Shown here piece after piece: positions 1,978 to 32,464 of a DNA stretch of 64,000 nt. The number at the start of each line of letters is the position of its first letter. Position 1 is the stretch's first letter. The stretch lies in the IMG/VR virus record IMGVR_UViG_3300032315_000774, positions 32,001 through 96,000 of that record, one strand, 5' to 3'. The position numbers were made by a program, and so were the translations under genes. Source of the DNA: a virus. The notes beneath the pieces are model-generated. The model saw only the letters and a list, made by a program, of their open reading frames with translations, did no database searches and was not told the DNA's origin.

Positions 1978-2625
1978 TTGTTCATGCTTTCCATCGAGGA
2001 GCTGATCACCACCTTCAACACGATGCCCGAAGAGCAGCGTATGTCGGCGTTCAACGTCGTCTTGCGTTGGCTCGGGCCGGATGGCGCGGACATCGTCATC
2101 GCAGATGCGGATGGCGAGGCCCGACTCGCCGCGAAAGAGGAAGACAAGAAGACACCAACAGAGCGCAAGCCGCCAGCGACTGAGGTGATGGACGCGCTGA
2201 GCGCCATCGTGAGCTACCTGTACGGACGCGACGCGAGGACGGTGCCCGAGCTGGCGCAGGCGCTGAAGCTCGACAAGTCGCTCGTGATGAAGGCCCTGTA
2301 CCAGGGGAAGAAGCTCAACAAGCTGACCGAGCTGAGCCTGACGGCGCCGCGTGCGATGCCTGGCTCGCGCAAGCCCGCAAGCAAGGGCTACGTGCTGTTC
2401 GGCCAGCCCGAGTTCTGGCGCCCGTCTCCCAAGGTCAGTGGCCTGCTCGACGGCGAGGTCGTCGAAGACAGCTCGAAGTTCGAGTTGGTCAAGACGATGG
2501 TCGAGGAAGCGCCTACGGCTGACGCAGTCGTCAACGAGTTCGAGCGCGTCCTCGACTCGCTCGTGTCGCCTCCGACGTCGACGCCGGTCGTGCCGCCCAA
2601 GGTTCTGAGCCTCGACGATCTGTGA
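1978..2625 (+). CDS. hypothetical protein, possible winged-helix (RTVPELAQALKLDKSLVMKAL)
   Basis: GC3-rich coding pattern, HTH-like segment; first gene of the plus-strand block. Confidence 0.6.
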   Translation: MFMLSIEELITTFNTMPEEQRMSAFNVVLRWLGPDGADIVIADADGEARLAAKEEDKKTPTERKPPATEVMDALSAIVSYLYGRDARTVPELAQALKLDKSLVMKALYQGKKLNKLTELSLTAPRAMPGSRKPASKGYVLFGQPEFWRPSPKVSGLLDGEVVEDSSKFELVKTMVEEAPTADAVVNEFERVLDSLVSPPTSTPVVPPKVLSLDDL

Positions 2626-2802
2626 GCAAGCCACACGTCCTCACGCGTGTGCTCACCGAGTACGCTGCACTGCTCCCTGCGGAGCGTGCGGCGTACCGGG
2701 AGCGCCTTCTGGCTCTTGCGGAAAAGTACAAGCTCACGCGCGAAGAGGTTGAGCGTCGACTCGACGCGATCGACGCCGCGCGTGTCGTGAAGGTGGTTCC
2801 TC

Positions 2803-3159
2803 ATGGTGATTGATCTCAAGAAGGACCCTGTTCCGTGCATCTGGTTCTGCATGTGGTTTGGCCTGTTCTGGTACGGCCGCAGTCGACCAGGCACGCACAA
2901 GATCGCGCTGACCCTCAGAGGTCTCGTGACAGAAGCATGCGCCGACGAGCAGAAGCGCGCGTACGAATACTTCGACGTACACCTCGGATTCACGCCGGTG
3001 CCTGCCAGGTTCCTAGACAAGATGAAGATCGAGGTGCCGTACAACAAGCTGCCGAAGATCGACGACATGCTGTTGATCGTTCCGTTCATGTTTTCACCGA
3101 GCACGTTTGTCACCAAGTGGTGGACGCTGCGCGCCATGCAGAAGATGTGGGGAACCTGA
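2803..3159 (+). CDS. hypothetical protein
   Basis: Overlaps both neighbours in a tightly packed operon. Confidence 0.5.
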   Translation: MVIDLKKDPVPCIWFCMWFGLFWYGRSRPGTHKIALTLRGLVTEACADEQKRAYEYFDVHLGFTPVPARFLDKMKIEVPYNKLPKIDDMLLIVPFMFSPSTFVTKWWTLRAMQKMWGT

Positions 3160-3695
3160 TGAAACACGCAGTTCTGGCTGTGATGATCGCAGTCGTGATC
3201 GTCATCGTGTTGTTCTTCGCGGTGCGCGACCACAGCTCGCGCGGCGACTCGGGGTTCCTGGTGACCGCCGAGTGCCAGCGCTACGACCGCGTGTGGCGCA
3301 CGCTGCGCGTCGGAGGACCGAGCTTGACTGCAGCAAAGCGCGAGGCGCTGTCGATGGCCGCCGAGTGGTGGAACGAAGAGCTGAAGCTACACGCGTTCGA
3401 GTTCGTCGAGGACGACCGCGATCTCGACGTCATCGTCGACACCAGCGCGGCGAAGAGCTACACGCAGTTCGAGATGACGTCGTGCGAGTCCGTCATGCGC
3501 ACACGCGTGTATCTCTACGACGGAGAAGCGCCGTCGAAGTGGATCGGCGTCTTCTCGCACGAACTCGGGCACGCGCTGTTTCTCGCAGACGACAACGTCG
3601 CCGAGTCGATCATGTACCATCGCGCGGGCACGCAGTTCTTTGGCGACGTCACGGACCAAGACAAGGCGCGCGTCACTGCGCGCTTCGAGGAGTGA
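3159..3695 (+). CDS. membrane-anchored matrixin-like (metzincin) metallopeptidase
   Basis: N-terminal hydrophobic helix; HELGHALFLAD followed by Met-turn SIMY. Confidence 0.7.
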   Translation: MKHAVLAVMIAVVIVIVLFFAVRDHSSRGDSGFLVTAECQRYDRVWRTLRVGGPSLTAAKREALSMAAEWWNEELKLHAFEFVEDDRDLDVIVDTSAAKSYTQFEMTSCESVMRTRVYLYDGEAPSKWIGVFSHELGHALFLADDNVAESIMYHRAGTQFFGDVTDQDKARVTARFEE

Positions 3696-3699
3696 GCAC

Positions 3700-4638
3700 A
3701 TGTACCGAATCATCGGCCTCTGCGGCGCTGCAGGCGTCGGCAAGAGTTACATCGCGAACATGCTGGGCAAGAACGAGAACTTCGTCGAGCGCTCGTTCGC
3801 CAAGACACTGAAAGAAGCTGCAGCTGTCATCTTCGACTTCAGTCACGAGCAGCTGTACGGTCCGAGCGAGAAGCGCAACGAGCCCGATCCTCGATGGGCA
3901 CGCGAAGGACGCGAACCGCTGTCGCCGCGCGAAGCTCTGCAGGTGCTGGGGACGGAGATCGCGAGACAGCTGCACGACGATGTTTGGATTCGTGCAGGCA
4001 TGCGCGCGATGGACCCGAACACTCGGTACGTGTTTCCAGACGTTCGCTTCAACAACGAGGCCCGGGCGATCCGCGACATGGGTGGTGTCGTCGTGAAGGT
4101 GTGTCGTGAAGGTACGAAGTCTGTCCGCGCACACGCTTCGGAACAGGGCATCGACCCCGCACTGATCGACTTCGAACTCGACAACGTCCTCGGTGACAAC
4201 GGCTTTACGATGACCGCGCTCCAGTCGCTCGTGTCGATGTCGTTCACTCCGTACGTCTTCCCGAAGCGACTGTGGGTCGCTCCTGGCTTCTTGAAAAGAC
4301 CTGGTGGTGACGACTTCAAAGCGTACATGCGACCTGTCCCGCTGCTCTGGATGAGAGTCGGTGAAGCTGCGCTCAATGCCGGGTGGCAGTGGCGCGCAGG
4401 CACACTCGACCTTGACGGCAACCGGATGATTCGAGACCGCGCACCGTTCGAGGCGTTCAACGTCTTCACCGAAGCGCGGCGCTCGTCGCCCTCGATCGAC
4501 GTGATGACAGTACCGGACTTCCGCGACGACGCTACGTTCGGTTGTCTGCAGATCCAGGCGCATGATAAGCAGACGTCGTGCGGAGCCCTTTTGGAAGTTC
4601 TCCGCCAAGCCGAAAACAATCGACGGCTCTACTTGTAG
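3700..4638 (+). CDS. deoxynucleoside monophosphate kinase with C-terminal extension
   Basis: IIGLCGAAGVGKS P-loop, FAxxLK, PRExLQxLGTE, DVRFxNE (T4 gp1-like motifs). Confidence 0.85.
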   Translation: MYRIIGLCGAAGVGKSYIANMLGKNENFVERSFAKTLKEAAAVIFDFSHEQLYGPSEKRNEPDPRWAREGREPLSPREALQVLGTEIARQLHDDVWIRAGMRAMDPNTRYVFPDVRFNNEARAIRDMGGVVVKVCREGTKSVRAHASEQGIDPALIDFELDNVLGDNGFTMTALQSLVSMSFTPYVFPKRLWVAPGFLKRPGGDDFKAYMRPVPLLWMRVGEAALNAGWQWRAGTLDLDGNRMIRDRAPFEAFNVFTEARRSSPSIDVMTVPDFRDDATFGCLQIQAHDKQTSCGALLEVLRQAENNRRLYL

Positions 4639-4681
4639 CCGCAGCCGCCATCGACACCGAGTGGACCCATCTGGAGCACCT

Positions 4682-5311
4682 ATGAACGACAAATACAAGA
4701 ACTGGCCGAGACCACGAGCTGTCGAGCAGAAGCTGGCAAATGCGGACCTCGTCGTCTTTGGTGACGAGTGGTCTCTCATCCACGGCTCCGCGAAGATCTT
4801 CTCTCTTCAGTACGAAGACAAGATGAAGCGATGGGAAGAGGTCTCTTGGCAGATCTTCGAGCTGATGTCAAAGCCACGCTTCTTGACTGAAATGCCTGTG
4901 CCGCCTTCGTCGATGGACGACGTCGACCTGCTTGACGTCTACGTTCAAGACATGCGGGCGTTTGCATGGTATAAAAGCGATCCAATGCATCAAACAAAGT
5001 GTGAGCTGTATGAGCAAGGTGCGTCAGGAGATGCACTCGCGCGTCAACGGTACGTGGAGATCTTCGCTTACTGCAGCGAGCACGACCGACCGAACAAGTT
5101 CTTCTTGTTCAAGAAGTTCGAGGTGGTCGGCGAGTCATATACGCGCTCTGTTGACGACATCGAAGACACCAACACGCCTTGTACGAAGTGCGGCGGTCGG
5201 AAGTGGATCGAGCACGATTGCGGCGACTCGTCGTGCGGGCAAGAGTACGACGTGTGCTCTGCATGCAGCGCACCGACGAGCAACGAGCAGCTCAAGAAGT
5301 CTGAGGTGTAA
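4682..5311 (+). CDS. hypothetical protein with C-terminal Cys cluster
   Basis: GGAG RBS; CTKC...C...C...CSAC. Confidence 0.55.
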   Translation: MNDKYKNWPRPRAVEQKLANADLVVFGDEWSLIHGSAKIFSLQYEDKMKRWEEVSWQIFELMSKPRFLTEMPVPPSSMDDVDLLDVYVQDMRAFAWYKSDPMHQTKCELYEQGASGDALARQRYVEIFAYCSEHDRPNKFFLFKKFEVVGESYTRSVDDIEDTNTPCTKCGGRKWIEHDCGDSSCGQEYDVCSACSAPTSNEQLKKSEV

Positions 5312-5312
5312 C

Positions 5313-5630
5313 ATGGTGGGCAAGGCACTCACGCTCTCGAATCTGATGCCATGGCACAACATCGTGCAGACGTTCTGCGATGGTAAGCTGTTGCTGAGCG
5401 GCGATGACCGTCCTCACCGCAAAGAACTGCTCGTGCAGTACGCTTCTGACAAGTACGACACCGTCGGTCAGTCATCCGATCCGGAGCTGACAGTGAACAA
5501 GTTCGTGCGCGACCGCGTCCGCAAGCTCCTCGTGAAGCGCGAAAACGAGCGCGAACGCCTGCTCGAACGGCTGCAGATCGTCGAGGAAGAGCTGCGCATC
5601 TACAAGCAGTACGAAGCGGAGAACCCGTGA
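5313..5630 (+). CDS. hypothetical coiled-coil protein
   Basis: GAGG RBS, ATG, operon packing. Confidence 0.5.
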   Translation: MVGKALTLSNLMPWHNIVQTFCDGKLLLSGDDRPHRKELLVQYASDKYDTVGQSSDPELTVNKFVRDRVRKLLVKRENERERLLERLQIVEEELRIYKQYEAENP

Positions 5631-6007
5631 CCTTGCTCCTCAAGCTGTGCTTGTTCGTGCCGTGGCTGCTTCCGCTGTTTCGTCGCGCCGTCGCGAAGCG
5701 GGTCATGCAGCGCATCGCGATGCCTGGTGACTACGCCGAGGCACCGAAGGTGCCAGGCAGCATCGTCGTCGTTGTGGGCCGTCCGTCGACGAAGCGAGCG
5801 ATGATGTTCACGTTGAACACTTCGCTCGAAGTAGAGATGACAGGCGCTGACCTCGGCGTGTCTGGTGACTGCATCGACACTATCTCTGCAAGCTACGACC
5901 TTGCACGAGGCTCGTTCGACGAGCTGCTGGACGTGGTACAGTACGTCAGCTTCGGTATGCTGGTGAGGAACCCACGCGGCGCTGAGTCGAGGTCACCTTC
6001 TTCATGA
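5627..6007 (+). CDS. hypothetical protein
   Basis: GTGA overlap with the upstream stop. Confidence 0.5.
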   Translation: MTLLLKLCLFVPWLLPLFRRAVAKRVMQRIAMPGDYAEAPKVPGSIVVVVGRPSTKRAMMFTLNTSLEVEMTGADLGVSGDCIDTISASYDLARGSFDELLDVVQYVSFGMLVRNPRGAESRSPSS

Positions 6008-8228
6008 ACTACGACGACATCAAGAAGCGCTTTGAGCAGCGTCTGCACGATCTTCGGTCGAAGGCAGGAGAAGAGCGCGACAGAGAAGCGCTCGAACTGG
6101 TGTGGCGTGTCGTCGGCCGCGACTTGACTCGGGCGATGCGAGAGTACGAAGCAGAGCTTCATGACACGTCCAACACTGACCTCGACACGTCCATCGCTGA
6201 CCGACGAAGACGCAGCTGAGCTGCGCGCGCTGCGCGTCGCACGCGACCAGTCTTCCGCTCGCATCGAGAAGCTACGGGCGGAGAACTACGCGCTCAGGGC
6301 TTCGGTAGAGCAGGCGCAGACGGCGCTGCGTGATGACCGTGACGAACAGCTGAAGGCGCTGACGGAGCGTGTTCAACAGCTCGAACTCGACATGGACAGC
6401 ATCCGTCGGTGGGGTAGCCCGAGACCTCGTCAGCGGTAACCGCACTCGCATCCCCAGAGTACACGCCACACCTTCGCCCACCACGACTGTGGTCGGACTT
6501 CGATGACCCTGACCGTCGACAGCGTGCCCAAACGCGCACTCACGAGCGCCCGCTCTCGTGCGTCGAGCTGTGCCTCTTCACGTGTCTTGCGCAGCGGACC
6601 AGCTGTGCAAGGACAGCCTTCTTGGGCTCGGTATCCGATCGGTTGCATGGCGCGATGTTCGCACAGAGCTGCAGCGCCAACAAGTTGACGTCGGCAAGTC
6701 GACGCCGTACGTTGTGCGTGCAGAGCAAAGGCTCTGCTCTCTTCTTCTACTTGAGCCGTGGAGTGGCCTCGGCTGGCGTCGGGGCCACTCCATGAACCTA
6801 AGCCATCGTCTGCACAGCGAAGTTGTACGGGAGCTGCGCCAACAAGCTGCTGCTTCACGGCACAGGAACGCGCAGCACGAGGCTACGAAGCATCTTCTAC
6901 ACACGCTCGTTCGTGAGGCTCTACCGGACCTGGTGCAGCTCGCTGTGCAGCGCTTGCGTGTGCGCGCTTCGCGTTCGTGATAGAGAAGCGACATGGTCTT
7001 CGCGGCTTTGATCGGTGCAGCTGTCGTCAGCTGCGTGCTTGGTGAGATGGCGCTGCAGGCGTTCATCTGGCTCATCACGAACCGAGGTGGCGAGTGACGC
7101 TCGTGTACGTGTGGGCTTCTTGGAGCGAGCCGAGCACACGGTTTCGCGAAGACGCAGAAGCCTACGCGAAGCGACGCGGCTGGCGCTTCGAGCCCTGCAA
7201 CCTCGACCTCGATCTTCCTCCATGCACTGTCGTCGCTTTGCCGACGATCGCGGTGTTCGACGAAGGGGACGCGCTGGTTGACAAGCTCATCGGAGCTGGG
7301 CGACTGGAAGCACTATGTCCAAGCCAGAGAGACGCGTAACGCTCGTCGACCTCCGCTCGAAGAACGGAGGCATCATCAAGAAGGGCACGAACTGCTGCGC
7401 CATGCCGCGTGGAAGAGTCTTCACGATCGGTGACGACACGACCGGCGTCGTCATGACGCGCATCCAACCCGAGTGGCTGGGGCCGCGCCTGCGAGGTGCG
7501 CGATGAGCCCCGCGAGCGTCGCTGTGTACCTGAAGATGGCCGACGTTTTCTTCGCGCTTGCAGTTCTTGTCGCGGTCATCATGCTCGCGAACAGGTTCGA
7601 CCCGGCCACGTGCCCACACGCGAACGCGAAGACCGAGGCGCTGTTCGAGCGTTGTCTCAAGCAGCATCCACAGACGGCCGACGTCGTCCTTTGGGCACCC
7701 TCGCCCATCGATCGATGCCTCAACGTCGCGTGCGTGCTGACGTCCACGACCACACCATGAAGTACGACAAGGACACAGGCACGTTCGTAGTCAGCTTCGA
7801 AGAAGTCAAAGCTACGGTCTCTGCGCAGCTGGACGTCGACGAGAAGGGTAACGTCATCAAAGGCACCTGGTGTGATCGAGCTGGGCAGCATCACGTCATC
7901 GAGATCGTGGATGTGTTGAAGCTGACGTGGTGGCAGCGCCTGAAGCAGTGGTGGCGTCGGTTCACACGCCAAGGAGAATAACATGCTTATAACCCGGACT
8001 GACTCACGACTTCCAATGTTCAGATCAAGAATCTGGTCATCGAGTCGACCTTTCGCGACGATGGACACGTGAAGATCATGCTGGTCACTGAGACGTCAGG
8101 TCTTCCGCATCCGCTGTTTCGAGTCAGTGGCTGCTCGAACTTCGTCAGCACGTAGCTTCCGATGATCACCTCTCAGCTGCAGCGGTCGACGAGATCAACG
8201 CATTCTTCGACCGCGTGGAGAGCCTGTC

Positions 8229-18541: not shown

Positions 18542-19138
18542 CTACGGCGTGCCTGAGCGCTGCGTGGAACGCCTGCGGGTGATCGGCTGGGACGTCTCGT
18601 CGGCCGACTTGCCTGCGCCTGCGTCCGCTACGCTCGTTGAGCTGAGATAAGGCAGCCACAGCGGGTCGGGGTCGGCGATCGACAAGTCGAACTCCAGCTC
18701 GTGGGGCTTGTGCGGCTGGCTCTTGAGACGCATGCCTGCTTGTGCAGGCGTTCGGCTCGACTTCCTCTGGTTACACGTGAAGCAAGCCGCCACCGTGTTC
18801 GTCCAGCTCGACGTGCCGCCTTGTGCACGCGGCACGACGTGGTCGACCGTCGCCTCGCTCTTCGCGAGCTTGGCCCCGCAGTACATGCACGTCGAACGGT
18901 CACGCACGACGACCGCACGCCGAGAGAAACGCGGCGCGCGTCGACGTCGTGCGTGGCCTCGACGCAGCAGGATGACCGCAGGTCGCTCGTAGAGCGTGCC
19001 GTTCGCACCAACGATCGGGTCGTCGTGCACTTCGAGCACGTCACCCTTCGTCGACGCCAGCATGATCATCGCGGCCTCCCACGACACGACCGACAGAGGC
19101 TGGTAGTCGGCGCCGAGGATGAGCGTGCGGTAGTTCAT
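18542..19138 (-). CDS. HNH endonuclease (McrA-like HNH_5 type)
   Basis: RDxxTCMYCG, TVDHVVPRAQGG, WTNTVAACFTCNQRK. Confidence 0.9.
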   Translation of the reverse strand: MNYRTLILGADYQPLSVVSWEAAMIMLASTKGDVLEVHDDPIVGANGTLYERPAVILLRRGHARRRRAPRFSRRAVVVRDRSTCMYCGAKLAKSEATVDHVVPRAQGGTSSWTNTVAACFTCNQRKSSRTPAQAGMRLKSQPHKPHELEFDLSIADPDPLWLPYLSSTSVADAGAGKSADETSQPITRRRSTQRSGTP

Positions 19139-20732: not shown

Positions 20733-21161
20733 TCAGGTCACCGATCGGTCGTCGCGCTGGAAGATCTGTGCGCGCTCGACGCGTAGCGCTTCACGGTCGA
20801 GGCGCTTGATGTCTGGATGGCTCAGCGAAGGAAGCCCGAAGCGCTTCGCGATGGCTTCTTCCATGCGGTGTTCGAGCGCTTTGTACTCGGGCAGAAGCTG
20901 CTTGAGAGGCGCGCTGACATCGCCAAGATACGCCTCGGCTGCGTCGTGGAGCAGCCCCAAGAGCTGCAGCTCTTTAGGCGCATGCTCGCTCACCCAGAGG
21001 CAGTGGCTCGCGACGCTGTAGAAGGGCGAGGTGTGGCCAGTGAATCGGCAGATGTGTGAGAGCGCGTGTGCGATGTCGATGATGTCGATCGACTCGACCT
21101 GCGGCTCCAGGAGGTGGACGTACTTGCCGGTGTAGGTGAGGATCGTTGGCTCCACACGCAC
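20733..21161 (-). CDS. HD-domain phosphohydrolase (YfbR-like)
   Basis: DIAHALSHICRFTGH, YSVASH, LLHDAAEAYLGD. Confidence 0.9.
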   Translation of the reverse strand: MRVEPTILTYTGKYVHLLEPQVESIDIIDIAHALSHICRFTGHTSPFYSVASHCLWVSEHAPKELQLLGLLHDAAEAYLGDVSAPLKQLLPEYKALEHRMEEAIAKRFGLPSLSHPDIKRLDREALRVERAQIFQRDDRSVT

Positions 21162-21180
21162 TCCTTGGATGCTCGCAGCA

Positions 21181-21218
21181 GGTACTGCAGACAGTGCTAT
21201 CCGACTGCCTGCAGTACC
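21181..21218 (-). other. 15-bp inverted repeat hairpin (terminator or processing stem)
   Basis: GGTACTGCAGGCAGT-8nt-ACTGTCTGCAGTACC, no U tract. Confidence 0.55.
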
Positions 21219-21241
21219 ATCGACGACGTCGTCGGCTTTCG

Positions 21242-21340
21242 TCGCTGCTGAGCGTGACGCAGATGCTCTACTGATTGAGCTACACCCCCATCGAAAGGGG
21301 GCGTTCCGTTCTGCCCGGAAGTCTTCTGCAATAACAGCGA
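21242..21340 (-). ncRNA. circularly permuted tRNA-like (YrlA-like) module B
   Basis: GCAGA / degenerate T arm / CGCCCCC-loop-GGGGGTG / TAGCTCAATCAGTAGAGC D arm / TCTGC, closed by TCGCTGTT...AGCAGCGA. Confidence 0.6.
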
Positions 21341-21360
21341 ACTAGGATACGAACGTCATC

Positions 21361-21516
21361 GTGCTGCGTGGGTTCAGGGTCCTTCGGAACAGTTTGATCG
21401 TCATGCGCTGACCGCCGCTCTACCAGTTGGCGTACCTCCCCACCGATTGAGGAGGGCTGGCATCGAACCAGCAACCACGAGTCAGACTTGCTGATCTTGA
21501 ACTTGAACTTCAGCAC
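21361..21516 (-). ncRNA. circularly permuted tRNA-like (YrlA / Y-RNA-like) module A
   Basis: CTGAC / GCTGG-TTCGATG-CCAGC T arm / CCTCCTC-loop-GGGGAGG / D-arm-like CGCCAACTGGTAGAGCG / GTCAG, inside a long bulged terminal stem. Confidence 0.7.
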
Positions 21517-21529
21517 CCCGAAGGGATGG

Positions 21530-22291
21530 TTACGCTCCGTTCAGGAACGTGAAGAGCTTGCTCGCGTCGAAGACACCCTCGACCTCGCGTGCGTTGGCCT
21601 CGGCGATGGCCGCCTTGGCCGCGTGCATCAGCTTCTCGATGCGTTCGATCAGCGCGGCCTTCTTGGCCTCGTCCCAAGCACCCGAGAGCTGGAACTCGGT
21701 CCAGCGGCCGATGCGCTTCTGCGTCTTGCGGACGGTGGTCTGCGCGGGGTGCTTGTCCGACGCCGGGACGACCACCACGACCTCGTCGATCGAGGTGAAC
21801 TTGTCGCGTGCGGTGGGTCCTGACGAGGCCACCGTCGCGACGGCGCCGCCGATCACCACGGTCTTCGTGGCGATGAAGTTGACCTGCGGGTTGCGCGTCG
21901 GGATGCGCTTCGCCTGCGCGTGGAGGTCGCGGAAGATCTTCTCCAGCGCGATCAGCGTCGTCGTGGGGAGCTTCACCGTCAGCGCCTGACCGTCGACGAC
22001 GATGGCCGCTGACGCGCTCTGGTTCGCCACGTCGCGCGTGGCCATCAGCTCGACGTGCTGTCGAGTCACGGTGAACGCGCGCTCCAAGATCAGGTCGACC
22101 GTCTGCTCGACCTGCTTCGACTCCGGAGGCAGCCGCTCGCCGTCGTCTTCCGTTGGCTGGTACGTGCGATCCAGCCCAGTGAACTTGTCGGGCTTGTCGA
22201 GCAGCTTGTAGCCGTCGCTGGTGACGCGGTTCGTGATCTCGGCCTGCGCCTTGACCTGGCCGACGAGCGCGGCGAGTTTGATCTTGTTCAT
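21530..22291 (-). CDS. conserved helical hypothetical protein (resembles the family I recall as DUF7873)
   Basis: AAGGAG RBS; FTGLDRTYQP...GERLPPE, A.KHPAQ, GRW....SGA, A..EAN motifs. Confidence 0.7.
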   Translation of the reverse strand: MNKIKLAALVGQVKAQAEITNRVTSDGYKLLDKPDKFTGLDRTYQPTEDDGERLPPESKQVEQTVDLILERAFTVTRQHVELMATRDVANQSASAAIVVDGQALTVKLPTTTLIALEKIFRDLHAQAKRIPTRNPQVNFIATKTVVIGGAVATVASSGPTARDKFTSIDEVVVVVPASDKHPAQTTVRKTQKRIGRWTEFQLSGAWDEAKKAALIERIEKLMHAAKAAIAEANAREVEGVFDASKLFTFLNGA

Positions 22292-22336
22292 GATGTCTCC
22301 TCTTTCGAGGGTAGGTTAGAGGTGGAAGAAGAAGTC

Positions 22337-22465
22337 GGAATGTGCGAGTGACGCGGCGTTTTTCACCTTGCGGCGAAGCGAAGGATTTGAACCTTCTACC
22401 CAATGCTTATCATGCATTTGCTCTACCGATGAGCTAGCTTGTAAGCCGACGTCGGAGCACATTCC
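22337..22465 (-). ncRNA. tRNA-Ile(GAT)-like domain embedded in a longer stem, in the leader of the 253-aa gene
   Basis: D, anticodon and T arms intact; acceptor only 4 bp; enclosed by GGAATGTGC/GCACATTCC. Confidence 0.65.
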
Positions 22466-22467
22466 TA

Positions 22468-22586
22468 CGGGGTGTGATGGATTCGAACCATCTGGCTTGT
22501 ATGGCCATCGCAGAGCCCTTTGCAGGACGAGAGCGCGACCAGTTTGCAACTTTACATAGTTGGTGAGGCCCAGCCTCAAACACCCC
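22468..22586 (-). ncRNA. tRNA-like RNA 1 with giant variable-arm insert
   Basis: GGGGTGT/ACACCCC acceptor, GATGG-TTCGAAT-CCATC T arm, 51-nt insert shared with RNA 2. Confidence 0.75.
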
Positions 22587-22603
22587 TTATTGTCAAAGAA
22601 CCA

Positions 22604-22724
22604 TGGACCTGTGTGGATTCGAACCACTTGCTTGTATGGCCGTCGCGGAACTCTTTGCGGAGCGAGAGCGCGACCAGTTTTCTGATGCCCAGTATCAGTG
22701 GGTTGCCATTACCCGTTCAGGTCC
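22604..22724 (-). ncRNA. tRNA-like RNA 2 with giant variable-arm insert
   Basis: GGACCTG/CAGGTCC acceptor, GTGG-TTCGAAT-CCAC T arm, insert 44/51 identical to RNA 1. Confidence 0.75.
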
Positions 22725-22787
22725 GTTGTCGCCTCGGACTCGCGTCGTCAGCGACGAGAGGATGTATCGCTCAGCTCGTTCGCGATG

Positions 22788-23378
22788 TCAACCGCCTCCG
22801 AACACGCCCGAGCGCAAGATCGTCGACGACGTCTTCTGGCCCGAGCGCAAGAACGTCTGCACTGCCAACGCCAAGGACGCCGCGCTCTGCATGATGAGCG
22901 GCAAGAACTCGCCGGTCTCGCACGTCACCGCGCCCGCTGCCGCCTCGTCGGGGACGAACTGCGGCGACCACCGCACGACGCCCATCTCTCCGTTCGGAGC
23001 GAGCGCGCCGTGCACCAGAGGCACACCGTTCGCCGTCGCGAAGCTGATGAGCGTGCGTCGGGCTTCGATGTTGTCCGTCGCGTCGACCAGCAACGTCGGG
23101 TTGTGAAGCGTGGTCTTGACGTTGTCAGACGTGATCTTGCCCGGGGCTGCCACGTACGATGCGCGCGTTCGACCGAAGTTGAAGTTGGCGCTTCGGACGA
23201 ACGCTTGCGCCTTGTTCACGCCCAACGTCTGGGTGCTGAAGGCTTGCGTGGTGAGGTTCTTGGCTTCGACGCGGTCGAAGTCGACCAGCGTGAACGTCGC
23301 GTCTTCGTTGCGCAGGAGCATGGCCGCATTCGAGCCAAGAGCCCCTACGCCGATGATGTAGATGTGTGGCTGCTTCAT
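22788..23378 (-). CDS. E1-like ThiF-family adenylyltransferase
   Basis: IIGVGALGS, DFDRVEAKNLTTQ, NKA, VDATDN; candidate Cys in TCE. Confidence 0.9.
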   Translation of the reverse strand: MKQPHIYIIGVGALGSNAAMLLRNEDATFTLVDFDRVEAKNLTTQAFSTQTLGVNKAQAFVRSANFNFGRTRASYVAAPGKITSDNVKTTLHNPTLLVDATDNIEARRTLISFATANGVPLVHGALAPNGEMGVVRWSPQFVPDEAAAGAVTCETGEFLPLIMQSAASLALAVQTFLRSGQKTSSTILRSGVFGGG

Positions 23379-23395
23379 CGTCGCAGCATGACACA

Positions 23396-24082
23396 CTACG
23401 CTTTCACATGGAAGACGTTGGTGAACGCTTGATCGAGCGTATCTGCCAGACCGTGAACGTCTGATACGTGCATCCAACGTCCATACACACCTCGAAAGTG
23501 CGGAGAGTCGTCTGTGGTGAGCTGGATTTGAAGTTCTGAGTTCTTCGGTGTCGCTCCTCGAAGGAACGTCGCGTAAAGCACAGCTTTCCGCTTGTTCTCA
23601 CCGTAAACGACGAAGATGTAGAGATGGAACAGACCGACGAGGTACATCGGCGAGAAGGTCCGAGCTGTCGAACGGGTCTCCTCGTGCACGGTCAAGTGCA
23701 CCTGACGCTCACGCTCGGCGAACACTTCGATGATCTTCTTCATCTCTCGGCGGCGCGCGCCGAACCCGGCCATGTCCTCGTCCGACGGCCGCGTCGTCAC
23801 GTTGTAGCCCCAGCCTCCCGCGTACAGTCGCGACGAAGTGTCTCCGAGCAGTCGCGTCGAGGTGTCGTCGACTGGGAGCTTCATCAGCTCAGGTTGAGCA
23901 GCTTCGGACAGATCGTAGAGCAGCGTCCACGTGGGCATCAGCAACGCGTGAGGTACGAACAAGCCGTCACCTGCGTCTTGACCGTCTCTCCACGCGTTGA
24001 GCGTGTACTCGTTCCACGTGTCGGTCGTGGGAGTGCGGTCGCGGAAATCCTTCAGAAGCTGTTGGAAGTGAGCGTTGGTCAT
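23396..24082 (-). CDS. hypothetical protein
   Basis: 228-aa ORF preceded by TCGACA-17-TAGTGT. Confidence 0.6.
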   Translation of the reverse strand: MTNAHFQQLLKDFRDRTPTTDTWNEYTLNAWRDGQDAGDGLFVPHALLMPTWTLLYDLSEAAQPELMKLPVDDTSTRLLGDTSSRLYAGGWGYNVTTRPSDEDMAGFGARRREMKKIIEVFAERERQVHLTVHEETRSTARTFSPMYLVGLFHLYIFVVYGENKRKAVLYATFLRGATPKNSELQIQLTTDDSPHFRGVYGRWMHVSDVHGLADTLDQAFTNVFHVKA

Positions 24083-24120: not shown

Positions 24121-24750
24121 TCAGCGCTTGTCGCCTGAGCCACCGAGCGCGTTGCGCGCCTGCCGATCGAGCAGCTTCTGCTTGTTGCGCGCTGCTACTT
24201 CATGCAGCGACACAGTACACGTCGACTGCACGAAGTAGAACGCGTGCTGCAGTAACTCGAACATCTGCATCCTTCGATCGCTGATGTCGCCACGCGCGTC
24301 GCGGATCGTCTTCTTGCTGAGCCCTGCGAGCTGCCTGGTGATCTTCCTCAGATCGAGGTGATCCTGCGTCGTGACGATGGTCTGCGTCAGTCTCGCGGCT
24401 TCTTCGATGTGCAGGAGCTGCACGAGCTGCGACATGTACCAGAGGCAGTCTCCTGCTTCTGCGATGACCGCATCGACAACTTCGTCCCAGCGACTACTGC
24501 GCACGTTCGCTTGAATGTGCACATCTTGAAGCTCGTGCAGCTCTTCGATGAGACCCAGCACCAGATACACCCACGAGGTGTCGACGTCACCCACCATCAC
24601 TTGCGGGTAGATGGCCGTCGTTGGCGTGAACTCGCGGTACGCCTTACCTTCAGGTGAGAGCCAGAACTGGTAGAACGATACACGTTTCGTCTCTACTAGT
24701 TGAGTTACGCTCATGTCTTCTGCTCCTTCGCGCATTTGCCTTTGAGGCAC
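24121..24750 (-). CDS. MazG-like NTP pyrophosphohydrolase
   Basis: GLIEE, EAGDCLWY, NxxKLxDRxxRxxLxGSGDxR. Confidence 0.85.
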   Translation of the reverse strand: MPQRQMREGAEDMSVTQLVETKRVSFYQFWLSPEGKAYREFTPTTAIYPQVMVGDVDTSWVYLVLGLIEELHELQDVHIQANVRSSRWDEVVDAVIAEAGDCLWYMSQLVQLLHIEEAARLTQTIVTTQDHLDLRKITRQLAGLSKKTIRDARGDISDRRMQMFELLQHAFYFVQSTCTVSLHEVAARNKQKLLDRQARNALGGSGDKR

Positions 24751-24954: not shown

Positions 24955-25308
24955 TCACTCGTCTTCGTCGTCCGAGTCCTCGTCGTCCTCGTCGTCTTCG
25001 TCGTCCTCGTCTTCGTCGTCTTCGTCCTCGTCTTCGAAGTCGTCGTCATCGACGTCGAGATCGTCGAGGTCGTCCTCGTCGTCCTCGTCCTTGTCCTCGG
25101 GGTCCTTGCCGGAGCCGAAAGGGACCTTGGGGCGGAGCATCACGCTCTCGGGCGTGGTCTCCGTCGCGGCGAAGCGCTCGATGACGAACGACTCGGGGAT
25201 GTGCTGGCCCGTCGTCTCGGCCGCGATGGCGCGGATCTGCGCGTCGGTGGCGTCTGCTTCGATCGTGTGCTCGTAGAGACGCCCGTCGAGTGTGATGCTC
25301 AGTCTCAT
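24955..25308 (-). CDS. ubiquitin-like (beta-grasp) protein ending ...RPKVPFG plus a ~50-aa Asp/Glu tail
   Basis: AAGGAG RBS; beta-beta-alpha-beta pattern over ~65 aa; adjacent JAB and nearby E1. Confidence 0.6.
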   Translation of the reverse strand: MRLSITLDGRLYEHTIEADATDAQIRAIAAETTGQHIPESFVIERFAATETTPESVMLRPKVPFGSGKDPEDKDEDDEDDLDDLDVDDDDFEDEDEDDEDEDDEDDEDDEDSDDEDE

Positions 25309-25652
25309 GTGTGCTCCTTCTTCTTGCCACGTGCTCGAAGTTCATCGAGCCATGACGTAGGCAAGACGTCCCTTACGACAGAACTCCAGGCGTCGTCAAA
25401 CGTCACCACGTACTGCTCGATGTGGCGACCGAACGCGATGTCGAGTGCTTCGAACGTCTCCAGGTCGATGGAACTCGGCACCGCACGTCCAGACCACGGA
25501 TGCAGATGCGCGACCGCGATCGACTGGTCACGCCGCGCCCACAGCTCGTCGAAGAACGTGCGCGAGTCGGGGATGTACGTCGACGTCGCGTCCGCTGGCT
25601 CGTGCCAGTAGACGGGCGCTCCGTCGACGAGGATGACCGCCAGCTCTCTCAC
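25305..25652 (-). CDS. JAB/MPN+ isopeptidase
   Basis: N-terminal E; HLHP...PSSID (HxHx7SxxD JAMM motif). Confidence 0.85.
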   Translation of the reverse strand: MRELAVILVDGAPVYWHEPADATSTYIPDSRTFFDELWARRDQSIAVAHLHPWSGRAVPSSIDLETFEALDIAFGRHIEQYVVTFDDAWSSVVRDVLPTSWLDELRARGKKKEHT

Positions 25653-27229: not shown

Positions 27230-27530
27230 GACAGCCTCGTACCACAGATGCCAGGCCGACTCGAACATCTGCATCGAGCGGGAGGAGGTGCGCCCAGAAG
27301 GCGTCGATGATGGCGTCATCTGTCTGTTCCGAGTGTGCTTGAACGAAAGCCTTGAGACGAGGCATCAGCTCGCGCAATCGCCTGTAGAAGCTCGCACGCG
27401 AGATGTCGAGACGTGTTGCTGCCAACGAACGCACGTTCCCTGCGAGGGCCAACTGGACAAAGAACAAGTCCTCGTCCAGCTGGCCCCGAGAAGCGCGTGC
27501 GACAGCTTGCAGCGCTTCACCGTACGTCAT
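27201..27530 (-). CDS. Fis-type HTH protein
   Basis: GNVRSLAATRLDISRASFYRRL matches the HTH_8 pattern. Confidence 0.65.
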   Translation of the reverse strand: MTYGEALQAVARASRGQLDEDLFFVQLALAGNVRSLAATRLDISRASFYRRLRELMPRLKAFVQAHSEQTDDAIIDAFWAHLLPLDADVRVGLASVVRGCRELARTTVD

Positions 27531-29311
27531 GCGCGTGCCCACACCGGCAGCGGGAGCAGCTTCGTCGCGGCGATCTGCTGCGCGAGGTCTGCACGCACCG
27601 TGGTCGTGGTCGACGACATCGGCGCCGACTCCATGAGGCGAGCCAGCGTGCGAGGCAGCGCGTACGCGTCCTCGATCGATGCCTGCGTCAGCTCGAAGTA
27701 CGGCACACCCGTGACCTGCGCCGCGCTTCGCCAGTAGCTCGGAACGCCCTTCACGCGGACCACTGGCATGCACACCACCGGCACGCCCCACCGCGCCATC
27801 GCGCGCTCCCACTGATCACGCGAGAAGCCCTCTTCCTCGTCGCCGATGAGCATCATGACGACGTCACCGCTCGGTCGCGGCACGCCACAGAGCGCCCCGA
27901 AGATCGATGCGTGCGTCGTCCCACCGCTCACCGACAGACCCCGGAACGACAGCTCGATCTCCGCTGCGGACGGCCCGCGCAGCTCCACGATCCGCGCGGT
28001 CGTGTTGAACGCCACGACCGTCACCTTGTCGAGAGGCAACGCCGTCAGGATGCGCCGAAGCGTTTGCTTCGCGACCTCGATGGCGTTCTGCATGCTCGGC
28101 GAGATGTCGAGCACCATCACCACGTGGAGGTCGTGCAGCGCCTTCTCCGTCACCGTTCGAGCTGCCGCCGACGCAGCGGCCTCCAGCTTCGCCTGGACGT
28201 CGCTCCGCGTGACCCGCGTGGCGATGTTCGCCGCCCGCATGTCCTCCGATGCCTTCAGCGCCGCCTCCCATGCCGTCTTCACGACGGGCACGTCGAGCAC
28301 GCCCAGCTCTTCGAGCGTCGGCGTCAGGATGACCAGCTCCTTCGGCGAGACCCCGCCCGCCTGGACCGCCGCGACCATCACGGCACGCGTCAGCTGCTCG
28401 CTCTTGAGCGCACCCGTGAGCTGCCGCCACGACGGCCGCTCCGTCTGGATGCGCTCGCACACCTGGCGCTCGGTCAGGTCGTGCCACGACGCCAGCTTGT
28501 CCCAGGCGACGCCCACGGCCACCGTGCGCATGCCGACTGCATCGGGCGACTGCTTCCAGCGCAGCGCCTTGTAGAACGCCTCAGAGCCCTTGTAGCGGCT
28601 CAGCGACGCCAACCGCATGATCGAGCGGCGGAAGCCCGCGCGCACGAGCCCGGCCAGCATGCGCGGGTTGTCCGTCCGGTAGTCGAGCCAGCGGTGGATC
28701 GCCGCGTCCCAGCGCCCCTTGGTGCTGAACCCGGCACGCCGGTTGATCTCGCGCACCTTCGGCGTCATCAACAGCGCGTGCACCTGGAGGAGCATGCGCG
28801 GGTTGAAGTCGCGGTCCTTCGCGAGCGTCAGGATCATCGCCTCACCGACCGCACGGAAGTCGTCGTCTCGAACCTTCTCCCCTGCCAGCTCGATCGTCTG
28901 ACCGCTGCGCTCCTGCACCAGCATGAACGCCGCGAGCGCGATCTTGAGGTCGCGGTGCTCCTGCGCGAACGCCCACGAAGCCCACTTCGCGGCGAACAGC
29001 TGGTCGAGCTTGTAGACCTCGTAGATCTGCGTGTACACACGCTCGGCCGTCGCCTCGTGCACGCCAGGCTCGACGATTGACGCGACGCGGCGTGCACCCT
29101 GCACGACGTGCTTGCCATCGTCAGAGAGCTTCCCGAGGCTCACGTGGCGCTTCTTCTGCGAGATGTCGAATACCTCGCCGTCGGACTTGATCTTGATGGG
29201 CTTCCAGACGCCGCCCACGTCGACGCCAGGGCGCCCGTGGTACGTGTGTTGGGTGTCGGCGATGAGCGAGCGGATGATGCGATCCGCTGCGCTGAGTGCT
29301 GCGTTCTCCAT
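27527..29311 (-). CDS. large helical + vWA domain protein (possibly Ro60/TROVE-like)
   Basis: MIDAS DISPS, VVAFN, GGTT, IGDEE at the C-terminus; long alpha-helical N-terminal region. Confidence 0.75.
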   Translation of the reverse strand: MENAALSAADRIIRSLIADTQHTYHGRPGVDVGGVWKPIKIKSDGEVFDISQKKRHVSLGKLSDDGKHVVQGARRVASIVEPGVHEATAERVYTQIYEVYKLDQLFAAKWASWAFAQEHRDLKIALAAFMLVQERSGQTIELAGEKVRDDDFRAVGEAMILTLAKDRDFNPRMLLQVHALLMTPKVREINRRAGFSTKGRWDAAIHRWLDYRTDNPRMLAGLVRAGFRRSIMRLASLSRYKGSEAFYKALRWKQSPDAVGMRTVAVGVAWDKLASWHDLTERQVCERIQTERPSWRQLTGALKSEQLTRAVMVAAVQAGGVSPKELVILTPTLEELGVLDVPVVKTAWEAALKASEDMRAANIATRVTRSDVQAKLEAAASAAARTVTEKALHDLHVVMVLDISPSMQNAIEVAKQTLRRILTALPLDKVTVVAFNTTARIVELRGPSAAEIELSFRGLSVSGGTTHASIFGALCGVPRPSGDVVMMLIGDEEEGFSRDQWERAMARWGVPVVCMPVVRVKGVPSYWRSAAQVTGVPYFELTQASIEDAYALPRTLARLMESAPMSSTTTTVRADLAQQIAATKLLPLPVWARA

Positions 29312-30019
29312 GCCGCAGTCTCTACGTGAGACGCTTGCTGCCGTCAACACTACCGATACAAGAACATCATGCTTGATGTATCGGAATCGCCACCTCGGAC
29401 TCCCGTGCAGCTTCGTCCGCCCATGCCTTCATCGCTTCAACCGTTCGCTTGTCGAGGCCAGGAAATCCAACCTCCAGAATGACGCACGCCATGCCGCAGA
29501 AGAACATGTACGCTTCGGTCATGTCTTGCGACGCCATCGGGTCTTTGGGAGTCGCCTGAAGAGCCAGCCGCGCTGCTAACACGCGCCCCGCTGTGGCGTA
29601 GAACTCTTGCTCGATGTCCGTCGCCATGTGCCCGAGCTTCTGTCGGAGCGCGTCTCGCTCTTGTCGGAGCTGTTCAAGTTCGGTCCGAAGTTCTTGCTCG
29701 GTCATGTGCTTCTACTAGCACAGCTCGACAGCCATCCGCACCAGCAGTCGCTTGTCGTCTGCACGCAAGAACAGCTGCGCTGCTTCCAGCGGCAAGTTGC
29801 AGGCGATACACCGCATCTGACCAGAAGCCGCATCGGGCTCGTACACATAGAACGTGTACATGTACTTCGGCTTTGCGACTGACGGCTCCGACAGCAGAGA
29901 GGGGGACTTCGGCGCTGGTTTGCAGGCTTCGTCGAGAAGCTGACGATGCTTCTTGATCGCGTCCAGTATGTTCGGGTCGTCGTAAGCGACTTGCGCCTTG
30001 AACGCCCACGCTGGCTTGC

Positions 30020-32029: not shown

Positions 32030-32033
32030 CATG

Positions 32034-32107
32034 TGTGACAAGCAGGAGTTGAACCTGCGACCTCATGCTTATCAGGCATGCGCTCTGACCACCTGAGCTA
32101 CTGTCAC
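32034..32107 (-). tRNA. tRNA-Ile(GAT)
   Basis: CATGC-CTGATAA-GCATG. Confidence 0.95.
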
Positions 32108-32397: not shown

Positions 32398-32464
32398 AAG
32401 CAGAGGATGGAATCGAACCATCGAGCAACGGCTTATGAGGCCGCGCAGCACCTTGCGCTCTGCT
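32398..32464 (-). tRNA. tRNA-Met/Ile2(CAT) with truncated D arm
   Basis: GCGGC-CTCATAA-GCCGT; only 67 nt. Confidence 0.75.

Follow-up and report, generated by a model that had tools for sequence, protein, structure and literature searches.

Transfer-RNA-shaped RNAs with a conserved variable-arm module accompany an operon for a Ro60-like protein in uncultured jumbo phages

Introduction

Two tandem RNAs shaped like transfer RNA (tRNA), here called RNA_A and RNA_B and encoded at positions 22468-22724 of a 64,000-nucleotide (nt) stretch of the IMG/VR virus record IMGVR_UViG_3300032315_000774 (the window: bases 32001-96000 of a 137-kb uncultured-virus contig with an estimated completeness of 61%), find their closest described counterparts among the Y RNAs of bacteria. 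As set out in the sections of Chen et al. (2014; PMC4201824) that concern them, YrlA (RF02553), the partner of Ro60/Rsr, is also a small tRNA mimic with a T arm, a D arm and an acceptor-like stem; it too is encoded beside a Ro60-type gene, often in multiple copies, and it joins a docking stem to its tRNA-like module. In the same sections Yrn1 of Deinococcus radiodurans also displays the unpermuted order of D-like and T arms, its anticodon arm of 5 base pairs (bp) carries a 6-nt loop as that of RNA_B does, and the Ro-binding motifs are given as GGUCCGA for vertebrates and GNCGAA(N)G for bacteria. A phage precedent is found in Thermus phage phiLo, whose Ro60 binds two phage-encoded Y-like RNAs (Yrl1/Yrl2; PDB 9KOP, 9L5Y) and the host polynucleotide phosphorylase, according to the portion of PMC12135203 that treats the complex; there, likewise, a phage Ro60 goes together with adjacent phage RNAs. 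The role of the tRNA-like half of bacterial Y RNAs has been an open question since 2014.

We report that RNA_A and RNA_B belong to a family of phage RNAs, the fold of which is under selection. Each RNA consists of an acceptor, a D arm, a T arm and usually an anticodon-like hairpin, with a module of about 50 nt at the place of the variable arm; the module combines an outer stem whose sequence is free with an internal loop in which NCUC is invariant, a capped hairpin and a single-stranded YACAAG linker that leads into the T arm. Within the family a constant module is thus carried on a variable tRNA body, and the family is genetically coupled to an operon for Ro60-like, JAB-like and E1-like proteins. 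We favor, with modest confidence, the reading that RNA_A and RNA_B are tRNA bodies with a conserved module and, most likely, partner RNAs of the Ro60-like protein rather than working tRNAs.

Results

The two RNAs of the window

The contig has a G+C content of about 62%, and ARAGORN finds 27 ordinary tRNA genes in the window. On the minus strand, a ThiF-family (E1-like) gene that stops at 22788 and a DUF7873 gene that starts at 22291 enclose three successive tRNA-like elements, the first two being RNA_A and RNA_B (Table 1). The acceptor strands of RNA_A (GGACCUG/CAGGUCC) and of RNA_B (GGGGUGU/ACACCCC) are paired at 7/7 positions, both D loops contain GG, and both T loops read UUCGAAU, which is canonical. 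The anticodon-like arm is CUGAU-ACUGGGC-AUCAG in RNA_A, with a 7-nt loop and C at position 33, and CAACU-AUGUAA-AGUUG in RNA_B, with a 6-nt loop. The 5' halves and acceptor strands of the two RNAs are unrelated; common to both is a block between the anticodon-like arm and the T arm (RNA_A positions 45-95 in the alignment), identical at 44 of 51 positions, with mismatches at RNA_A positions 63, 64, 66, 73, 75, 78 and 83.

Minimum-free-energy folding yields a cloverleaf with a single extra arm in RNA_A (-42.7 kcal/mol, z-score -2.66, with 2 of 200 dinucleotide shuffles equally good) and in RNA_B alike (-49.4 kcal/mol, z-score -4.18, with none of 200). In this pair the 6-bp outer stem of the extra arm is followed by a bulged A and three inner pairs, then by an internal loop (UCUC/UCY) and a hairpin whose loop includes GCAA. 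Pairing in the hairpin stem is preserved where RNA_A and RNA_B differ, and one of the differences is a double change from U-A to C-G. A preliminary description of the window had reported tandem cloverleaves with unrelated but fully paired acceptors and odd anticodon loops, a 51-nt insert with 44 identities, and a fold of this insert into a bulged helix, a pyrimidine-rich internal loop and a GCAA hairpin in which the differences keep pairing; the minus-strand sequence, the alignment and the folds bear out all of this, the count of identities being exact.

Neither RNA is among the tRNAs called by ARAGORN, and the comparison with Rfam 15 that had been proposed, RF00005 (gathering score 29 bits) included, gave no match to any described family on 22468-22724 even at an expectation value (E) <=10. 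In a decoding tRNA one expects an anticodon loop of 7 nt in which position 33 is U and position 37 a purine; RNA_A has C33 and RNA_B a loop of 6 nt. The YrlA model RF02553 (gathering score 69 bits) also matched neither RNA at E<=10. The order of elements in RNA_A and RNA_B is acceptor, D arm, anticodon-like arm, module, T arm, acceptor, and not the permuted one of the YrlA type (closing stem, T arm, capped acceptor, D arm, closing stem).

The stretch 21100-23600 yielded neither a promoter-like nor a terminator-like site. Two RNA libraries contain parts of a 91-95% relative; one of them has an 8,989-nt contig that is identical to the contig assembled from DNA of that sample, and the other holds short contigs at a depth of about 4. 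The RNA-library contigs establish neither transcription, nor RNA ends, nor habitat.

A phage RNA family and its covariation

A covariance model built from RNA_B alone scored RNA_A at 68.5 bits and, in 951 kb searched, recovered four full-length relatives (E 3e-6 to 9e-5) in two other jumbo-phage contigs that had been retrieved for encoding DUF7873, a reason unrelated to the RNA. All four have the same architecture, with UACAAG directly before the T arm. A scan of viral contigs for the pattern TACAAG-N3-7-GGTTCGARTCC returned at least 117 stretches, in which a model of 6 sequences (R2) gave strong full-length matches of 113-153 nt arranged in tandem, L103 holding five copies for instance. A model of 27 sequences (R3), which includes RNA_A and RNA_B and from which L023 was omitted in training as doubtful, gave 134 matches at E<=1e-9, 132 of them distinct, with lengths of 107-163 nt (mean 132); seven duplicate loci (L209, L233, L273, L274, L276, L277, L278) were excluded from this count. 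The arrays hold 1-6 copies per locus, in uncultured jumbo-phage contigs. RNA_A scores 80.3 bits (E 1.8e-19) and RNA_B 106.2 bits (E 1.5e-26) under R3, values that arise partly by construction since both were in the training set, the independent members scoring 50-92 bits. Family membership was taken to mean a full-length match to the family model (R2 or R3) together with an NCUC loop and a YACAAG linker, and the two RNAs of the window show all three, with the loop UCUC and the linkers UACAAGCC and UACAAGCA.

The alignment of the 132 sequences supports the fold, with the caution that it was fitted to the covariance model, which favors pairing: standard pairs occupy 90.9% of cells, compared with 55.9% in column shuffles and 36-54% when the 3' partner is slid by 1-3 columns. 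Changes on both sides occur in 34 of the 35 pairs, and the top 27 column pairs of a mutual-information scan are all pairs of the model. Six main helices are supported: the four of the tRNA body (acceptor, D, anticodon-like and T) and, in the arm, the outer stem (84.7% paired) and the distal hairpin (97.6%). With 48.5% of cells paired, the helix of three inner pairs, CGC/GCG in the window, is not a family feature. No pseudoknot or tertiary pair involving NCUC or ACAAG stood out in the mutual information, in which invariant columns cannot covary.

An exact search of viral contigs for the arm sequence of the window itself found nothing; conservation does not extend to the sequence of the stem. 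When GenBank phages were searched at the DNA level for near and distant relatives of the region, none emerged, and the matches were confined to ordinary tRNAs resembling the third element.

Conserved motifs, a natural permutant and the anticodon-like loops

The 5' side of the arm's internal loop reads CUC at 99, 100 and 98% of the 132 sequences, occurring as CCUC, ACUC or UCUC, and in the ACAAG of the linker A, C, A and G are each present at 100% and the fourth position is A at 81%, the preceding base being U or C; the first contigs were chosen by the TACAAG pattern, which biases the motif, and the model still rewards ACAAG, but the 50 loci that give most of the alignment were chosen by protein only. 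Other invariants are G1, the D-loop G, the C before the arm and the T-loop sequence GGUUCGAnUCC, and the G that opens the distal hairpin is present at 89%. The outer stem of the arm has no conserved sequence. Hammerhead-type and K-turn motifs were rejected by eye, their core sequences being absent.

A natural circular permutant occurs at L041:1958-2103 (and in L076 at about 1560-1710), in the same array as standard members, of which L041 has two; the L041 fold has a z-score of -3.17. Its RNA ends pair as the distal hairpin part of the arm and its acceptor is closed by UUCG, the order being ACUA, outer stem, UACAAGCAAU, T arm, UUCG-capped acceptor, D-like arm, a 5-bp/7-nt hairpin, CC, outer stem, ACUC. 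The permutant retains ACUC, ACUA and UACAAG, and its closing stem stands at the variable-arm position. Since this member is an exact circular permutation with a capped acceptor, a free acceptor end is inessential to the role of the family.

That the 51-nt block might be an intron or a small mobile insertion, removed from the transcript, is suggested by its fixed place and near-identity in two otherwise unrelated tRNA-like genes, and a group I intron (RF00028, 76.6 bits; L103 1948-2178) does occur within the tRNA array of a related locus, on a 436-kb phage contig with five family copies. However, the stems of the module covary with free sequence over 132 copies, which indicates selection on an RNA fold rather than recent insertion, and in the permuted RNA the module persists and there forms the ends. 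Excision would leave non-canonical anticodon loops in most copies; moreover, Pfam RtcB has no match in the 137-kb record (61% complete), and none of the contigs examined is joined across the block so as to omit it, although contigs do not suffice to exclude such a joint. We regard this explanation as scarcely credible.

The anticodon-like loop has 7 nt in 65 of the 132 sequences, 33 of which combine U33 with a purine at 37; it has 6 nt in 32, 5 nt in 20, 8 nt in 5 and more than 8 nt in 3, and in the remaining 7 the arm is missing or its loop has at most 4 nt. Family copies are interspersed among ordinary tRNA genes, the base after the discriminator is C in most of them, and CCA is fully encoded in 35/132. 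These features, together with a complete cloverleaf, a canonical T loop and the D-loop G, are what one would expect if the RNAs were genuine decoding, suppressor or recoding tRNAs with a giant variable arm as an identity or protection element. Such a function nevertheless appears very improbable, given that 99/132 copies lack a canonical anticodon loop (7 of them the arm itself), that the copies of the window have a 6-nt loop and C33 and are rejected by ARAGORN and the Rfam tRNA model, that sequence conservation resides in the arm and not at the anticodon or identity positions, and that the permuted member has no free acceptor end.

Alternatively, the RNAs could be decoys that absorb host defense nucleases or toxins directed at tRNA, independently of the Ro60-like protein. 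Their location in phage tRNA arrays would suit this role, and so would the variety of tRNA bodies and loops, some of which come near real anticodon loops (CUUCCAC, AUUUGGA), and the fully conserved single-stranded ACA of the linker. Against it, the constrained part is an extra arm that no tRNA possesses, and the anticodon-like arm is often short, varies among members and is missing from some; the strict coupling to the Ro60-like operon would also be left unexplained. We therefore find the decoy explanation quite improbable. None of these three alternatives, intron, decoding or decoy, agrees well with the loop statistics, the permutant and the covariation.

Several claims of the preliminary description can be judged against the family as a whole. 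A covariance-model search, as it had proposed, found the 132 distinct phage relatives, and its view that the insert is the most conserved part holds among them, the arm and linker being constant and the tRNA stems free in sequence yet paired. Its view that these are not ordinary decoding tRNAs agrees with the small share of canonical loops (33/132), and the inverse topology to YrlA that it perceived is borne out by the circular permutant. It had also singled out the CUGGUC bulged stem as a look-alike of the Ro-binding site, and here the family disagrees, as the outer stem covaries and its sequence is not conserved; the bulged A and the three inner pairs fared no better, that helix being paired in less than half of cells. 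The CUGGUC sequence, which recalls the vertebrate Ro site, and the bulged A are a local accident of the window, because the outer stem is without conserved sequence across the family.

Coupling to the operon

At the head of the operon stands a gene for a 607-amino-acid (aa) protein with a helical part and a vWA domain, followed by a small JAB-like and an E1-like gene (Table 1). The E1-like gene ends 63 nt before RNA_A, so that the pair lies in this operon at the place typical of the family, soon after the E1 gene. Searches with tblastn, using the neighbor genes of the window as queries, showed that homologs of the 607-aa vWA protein and of the E1-like protein accompany the RNAs.

Starting from the RNA, a full-length homolog of the 607-aa protein is encoded in all nine other records tested (9/9) that have a strong RNA (an R3 score of >=50 bits, or these RNAs as scored by R2), records that had been reached by the RNA motif or by the DUF7873 search. 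The L149 record, with an R2 match of 37.5 bits (R2 search only), has a weak, partial relative of the protein (a 491-aa frame, E 5.6e-22), and two records with doubtful RNA matches are without the vWA protein. Starting from the protein, 74 viral loci were fetched by the 607-aa family alone, with 10 kb on either side. At least one RNA at E<=1e-9 is present in 50 of the 67 non-duplicate loci when counted by script, and at least one RNA of >=50 bits in 56 of the 74 when counted by hand. In the 50 loci, 124 of the 126 RNA matches lie on the strand of the vWA gene, and both exceptions are in L223. The array lies downstream in 39 loci, at a median of 147 nt after the E1 match, and upstream of the vWA gene in 12, within about 500 nt in five of these. 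As a control, 80 tRNA-rich phage loci chosen by DUF7873 (906 kb) yielded matches of >=50 bits in L041 and L076 only, and both of these records carry the Ro60-like protein.

Judged by tblastn, the 74 loci contain a homolog of the vWA protein in every case (74/74), of the 115-aa JAB-like protein in 66 and of the E1-like protein in 64, the latter two on the same strand, of a 294-aa gene in 39, of a 117-aa gene in 12 and of DUF7873 in 4. DUF7873, which is widespread in phage tRNA arrays, was first suspected as the partner and was dropped on this count.

Among contigs of metagenome-assembled and other genomes, the RNA is present in 19 of 30 loci with closer homologs of the protein (37-43% identity) and in 0/45 loci with homologs of 30-35% identity (RNA model, within 10 kb), complete Corallococcus chromosomes included; therefore, the RNA accompanies the phage-type clade of the protein. 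The homologs at 30-35% identity include those encoded on Myxococcota chromosomes (L310-L353). From the distribution of homologs and the G+C content, the host of the phage may be a myxobacterium, which is a guess.

The constancy of the other two operon genes raises the possibility that the RNAs partner the E1-like and JAB-like enzymes, either as substrates of an E1-type modification or sulfur relay or as guides or acceptors in ubiquitin-like conjugation. Some enzymes of the E1 family act on tRNA, as TcdA does on t6A37, and Urm1 and TtuB take part in sulfur relays. The short distance from the E1 gene to the array in the window and in the 39 loci, the co-conservation of both genes on one strand, and an enrichment of CCA-like 3' flanks all speak for such a partnership, and the weaker NCBIfam matches of the E1-like protein include TcdA (1.6e-9) and the SAMP-activating E1 (4e-10). 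On the other hand, these matches are generic and all fall far below the curated cut-offs, the PADLOC E1 matches being below theirs as well, and no E2 or ubiquitin-like protein gene was confirmed by Pfam, NCBIfam or PADLOC; furthermore, in the 12 loci mentioned above the array lies upstream of the Ro60-like gene and not after E1, and the permutant with its capped acceptor argues against an essential chemistry at the 3' end. This is the main rival to a partnership with the Ro60-like protein, from which it is not fully exclusive, being compatible with RNAs that also bind that protein; we judge it unlikely, though far from negligible.

The 607-aa protein

Structural comparison suggests that the 607-aa protein is a remote relative of Ro60, or at least Ro60-shaped, which we hold with moderate confidence. 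Its AlphaFold model (mean predicted local distance difference test, pLDDT, 82.4), submitted in full length to Foldseek, has ten top matches that are all Ro60/TROVE structures, aligned over 536-569 columns (E 3.5e-7 to 4.7e-5) and including Xenopus and human Ro60, Deinococcus Rsr and the Ro60 of Thermus phage phiLo (9KOP), with target-normalized template-modeling scores of 0.29-0.52. The second phiLo Ro60 entry, 9L5Y, follows at rank 13 (E 7.5e-5, 530 columns), and the remaining matches among those listed are to vWA domains or larger vWA-containing proteins over about 160-265 columns. A Y RNA in the broad sense would be encoded beside a Ro60 gene; here a helical-plus-vWA gene is adjacent to the RNAs in 50/67 loci, TROVE being undetected by sequence. 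Language-model features of residues 1-400 point, with a score of 0.85, to clusters of TROVE and DUF2828, a hint and no more.

By sequence the relationship is faint. Pfam recognizes only vWA in the protein, VWA_2 (26.8 bits) and VWA_CoxE (23.8 bits) both being just below their cut-offs, and of the 681 matches that make up its family, mostly of about 620 aa and about 40% identity, none is annotated as TROVE. BLASTP against the phage Ro60 of L083 found nothing (best E 2.1), and against that of L005 it found only the stretch of the vWA metal site (E 1e-4). The 395 N-terminal residues folded alone with a pLDDT of 86.2, and VIA, an aligner independent of Foldseek, places three Ro60-type proteins ahead of all other chains for this N-domain, in favor of the relationship. 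For the full-length model the matches listed by VIA are to vWA domains only, and that comparison is uninformative on the N-domain.

Neighboring features

The features of the locus are collected in Table 1. The acceptor of the third tRNA-like element has 4 bp, an asymmetric internal loop and a further 4 bp, and ARAGORN does not call this element; a normal tRNA-Ile(GAU) is present elsewhere in the window.

DUF7873 occurs in at least 331 viral stretches, often inside tRNA arrays, and a TROVE gene is present in 10 of 50 of its records; a single-protein search for DUF7873 loci found none. After the DUF7873 gene of the window come two structured RNAs, each with a fold z-score of about -3, the first of which has the YrlA-like permuted order of T arm, capped acceptor and D arm. 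L005, an AT-rich phage, encodes a recognizable Ro60 (vWA_Ro60 1.8e-12, weak TROVE; 2397-6823 for the whole region), and after it come long tRNA-shaped RNAs built on a different plan (4467-4592 and 6708-6823) that flank a DUF7873 gene; ARAGORN calls a tRNA with a 4-base anticodon at 5686-5776. Genes for a MazG-like pyrophosphatase, an HD-type deoxyribonucleoside 5'-monophosphate phosphatase and an HNH endonuclease also lie near the RNA locus; a MazG-like gene within the operon is seen in this phage only (0/74 related loci).

Table 1. Positions of the RNAs, operon genes and neighboring features in the window
Feature	Position	Strand	Length	Remarks
RNA_A, tRNA-shaped	22724..22604	-	121 nt	Length includes discriminator A; CCA not encoded
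RNA_A extra-arm module	22630..22680	-		Outer stem, UCUC internal loop, hairpin, UCC, outer stem, then UACAAGC linker
RNA_B, tRNA-shaped	22586..22468	-	119 nt	Length includes discriminator G; short D arm; CCA not encoded
RNA_B extra-arm module	22495..22545	-		UCUC loop, GCAA-capped 5-bp hairpin, UCU, UACAAGCC linker
Ro60-like helical+vWA gene, operon head	27527..29350	-	607 aa	Pfam vWA only; fold match to Ro60
Small JAB-like gene	25305..25652	-	115 aa	Weak: Pfam Prok-JAB E 0.042, below cut-off
E1-like (ThiF family) adenylyltransferase gene	22788..23477	-		Pfam ThiF 8.3e-22
Third tRNA-like element	22376..22440	-		tRNA-Ile(GAU)-like D, anticodon and T arms; Rfam tRNA 47.2 bits, model positions 4-67 only
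DUF7873 gene	21530..22291	-		Directly after RNA row; Pfam PF25283 3.4e-50; neighbor, not module core
Permuted tRNA-like (YrlA-type) module	21411..21480	-		Rfam YrlA 20.3 bits (gathering 69), E 0.093 in 501-base search; z -3.0
Two structured RNAs	21240-21500	-		After DUF7873 gene
MazG-like pyrophosphatase gene	24121-24750	-		
HD-type phosphatase gene	20733-21161	-		PHROG 318, 3.6e-59
HNH endonuclease gene	18542-19138	-		
tRNA-Ile(GAU)	32033-32107			Normal
tRNA-Met call	32398-32464	-	67 nt	Anticodon at position 28; Rfam 31.3 bits; unusually short or defective; main array

Discussion

We propose that the RNAs would be transcribed together with the operon or with neighboring tRNA genes, and that they would be excised and finished by the tRNA-processing enzymes of the host (RNase P, RNase Z and the CCA-adding enzyme), since the copies sit among tRNA genes, mostly have C, and in part a full CCA, after the discriminator, and in the window lie in a stretch with no promoter-like or terminator-like site. 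The module, through its outer stem, NCUC loop and YACAAG linker and perhaps the elbow at the T arm, would then dock the Ro60-like protein as the stem of a Y RNA docks Ro60, and the tRNA body could act as a mimic that recruits or occupies a tRNA-binding partner or host enzymes, as in YrlA. The resulting RNA-protein particle might serve RNA surveillance or the handling of tRNA during infection. Several tRNA bodies on one constant module in the same array look like a set of adaptors, a tRNA half that varies within the array and a docking half that stays constant being the pattern expected of an adaptor.

The preliminary description had read the pair as a non-decoding tRNA chassis that displays a protein-binding domain, with a link to the vWA/Ro-like protein. 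The chassis, the constant docking arm and the Ro link, the last of these supported by gene neighborhood and predicted fold, have stood, whereas its choice of the nucleotides that matter has not.

This interpretation should be held with some caution, as a number of observations weigh against it. On the side of the protein, the 137-kb record has no match to the Pfam model of TROVE, and a profile of 31 sequences of the 607-aa family compared with PDB sequences finds vWA domains only. Foldseek on the N-domain alone gives no significant match (best E 0.032, with Ro60 at ranks 6 and 13). VIA, run with the N-domain against 48,161 chains, ranks Rsr (Z 9.5 over 253 residues), phiLo Ro60 (9L5Y; 9.1) and Xenopus Ro (8.2) ahead of the next chain at 6.3, but with root-mean-square deviations of 10.8-14.2 Å and at Z values (8-9.5) that a helical-repeat arrangement alone can reach. 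On the side of the RNA, NCUC and YACAAG are unlike the published Ro-binding motifs, and the GGUCGCG in the outer stem of the window RNAs is not conserved in the family. The sole RNA-library signal is a Logan contig of 391 nt (depth 3.9) covering 22241-22630, and it does not show transcription because a DNA run of the same sample also spans these positions. Encoded or near-encoded CCA and the 33 canonical anticodon loops leave room for the charging of some members.

The genomic coupling also has its exceptions. In three records a distance of 16 to about 230 kb separates the RNAs from the Ro60-like gene, and fifteen protein-fetched loci, several of them truncated, are without an RNA match, which speaks against a strict rule. 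Among GenBank phages the protein occurs in 1 of 50,697 records (KX853510), with no member of the RNA family within 11 kb. Finally, the tightest spacing is to the E1 gene, so another protein of the operon could be the partner.

A more far-reaching picture, which we regard as a long shot, is that the RNAs are the specificity subunits of an RNA-guided particle of the phage that links RNA surveillance with ubiquitin-like chemistry, in which the arm would dock the Ro60-like ring, the several tRNA bodies of a phage would each imitate another tRNA and so capture a given host tRNA-binding enzyme or defense nuclease, and the E1-like and JAB-like enzymes would tag or untag the captured protein. Bolder than this tagging scheme would be a version in which a small protein activated by E1 is transferred onto the CCA end of the RNA itself.

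Should the favored interpretation, partner RNAs of a Ro60-like protein, be true, jumbo phages carry a large, uncatalogued class of tRNA-mimicking RNAs, with at least 132 distinct copies in about 50 contigs, and the partnership of Ro60 and Y RNA reaches proteins beyond sequence profiles and a new setting, an operon that also encodes E1-like and JAB-like enzymes. The family escapes today's tRNA finders and Rfam, and gaps in the tRNA arrays of phages may hide such genes. The family moreover provides directly testable material, in the form of a defined 50-nt module with two invariant motifs, a natural circular permutant and a conserved candidate protein partner.

With regard to novelty, a 2016 survey by Burroughs and Aravind in Nucleic Acids Research reportedly covered TROVE-centered RNA-repair systems and may bear on the question. 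Full-text searches of the literature, with Burroughs and Aravind 2016 and the supplements of Chen et al. 2014, which list phage Y RNAs, outside their scope, returned no description of such RNAs or of the operon. Rfam 15 likewise gave no match at E<=0.05 to 16 family members in three other loci.

Class II tRNAs (Leu, Ser and bacterial Tyr) have a stem-loop at the variable-arm position on a normal cloverleaf. The arm of the new RNAs differs from theirs in its size of about 40-50 nt, its internal loop and the single-stranded linker of 8-10 nt that follows it. Unlike class II tRNAs, the new RNAs also have mostly non-canonical anticodon loops and are rejected by ARAGORN and the Rfam tRNA model.

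The comparison with Y RNAs, limited on their side to what the cited sections of Chen et al. 2014 and PMC12135203 contain, is closer. The new RNAs have an open acceptor and, at the variable-arm site, a docking arm closed as a hairpin, whereas YrlA is built the reverse way, with its closing stem at the position of the anticodon stem; NCUC and YACAAG take the place of GNCGAA(N)G. The candidate partner of the new RNAs has no detectable TROVE sequence signature, unlike the Ro60/Rsr of YrlA, and their operon contains E1-like and JAB-like genes rather than RtcB. In Yrn1, as described there, it is the ends of the RNA that make up the Ro-binding stem, and a variable arm is lacking, whereas the ends of the new RNAs form a 7-bp acceptor and the module is internal. 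The RNAs of phiLo, in the cited part of that account, lack a tRNA body, being Y RNAs of stem-bulge-stem form that carry a CGAA motif, and the phiLo Ro60 is recognizable as such, the 607-aa protein being far more diverged. In conclusion, the family is apparently undescribed, and apparently constitutes a variant of the Y RNAs of the YrlA/Yrn1 type, with another topology, other motifs, another operon and a much more diverged protein.

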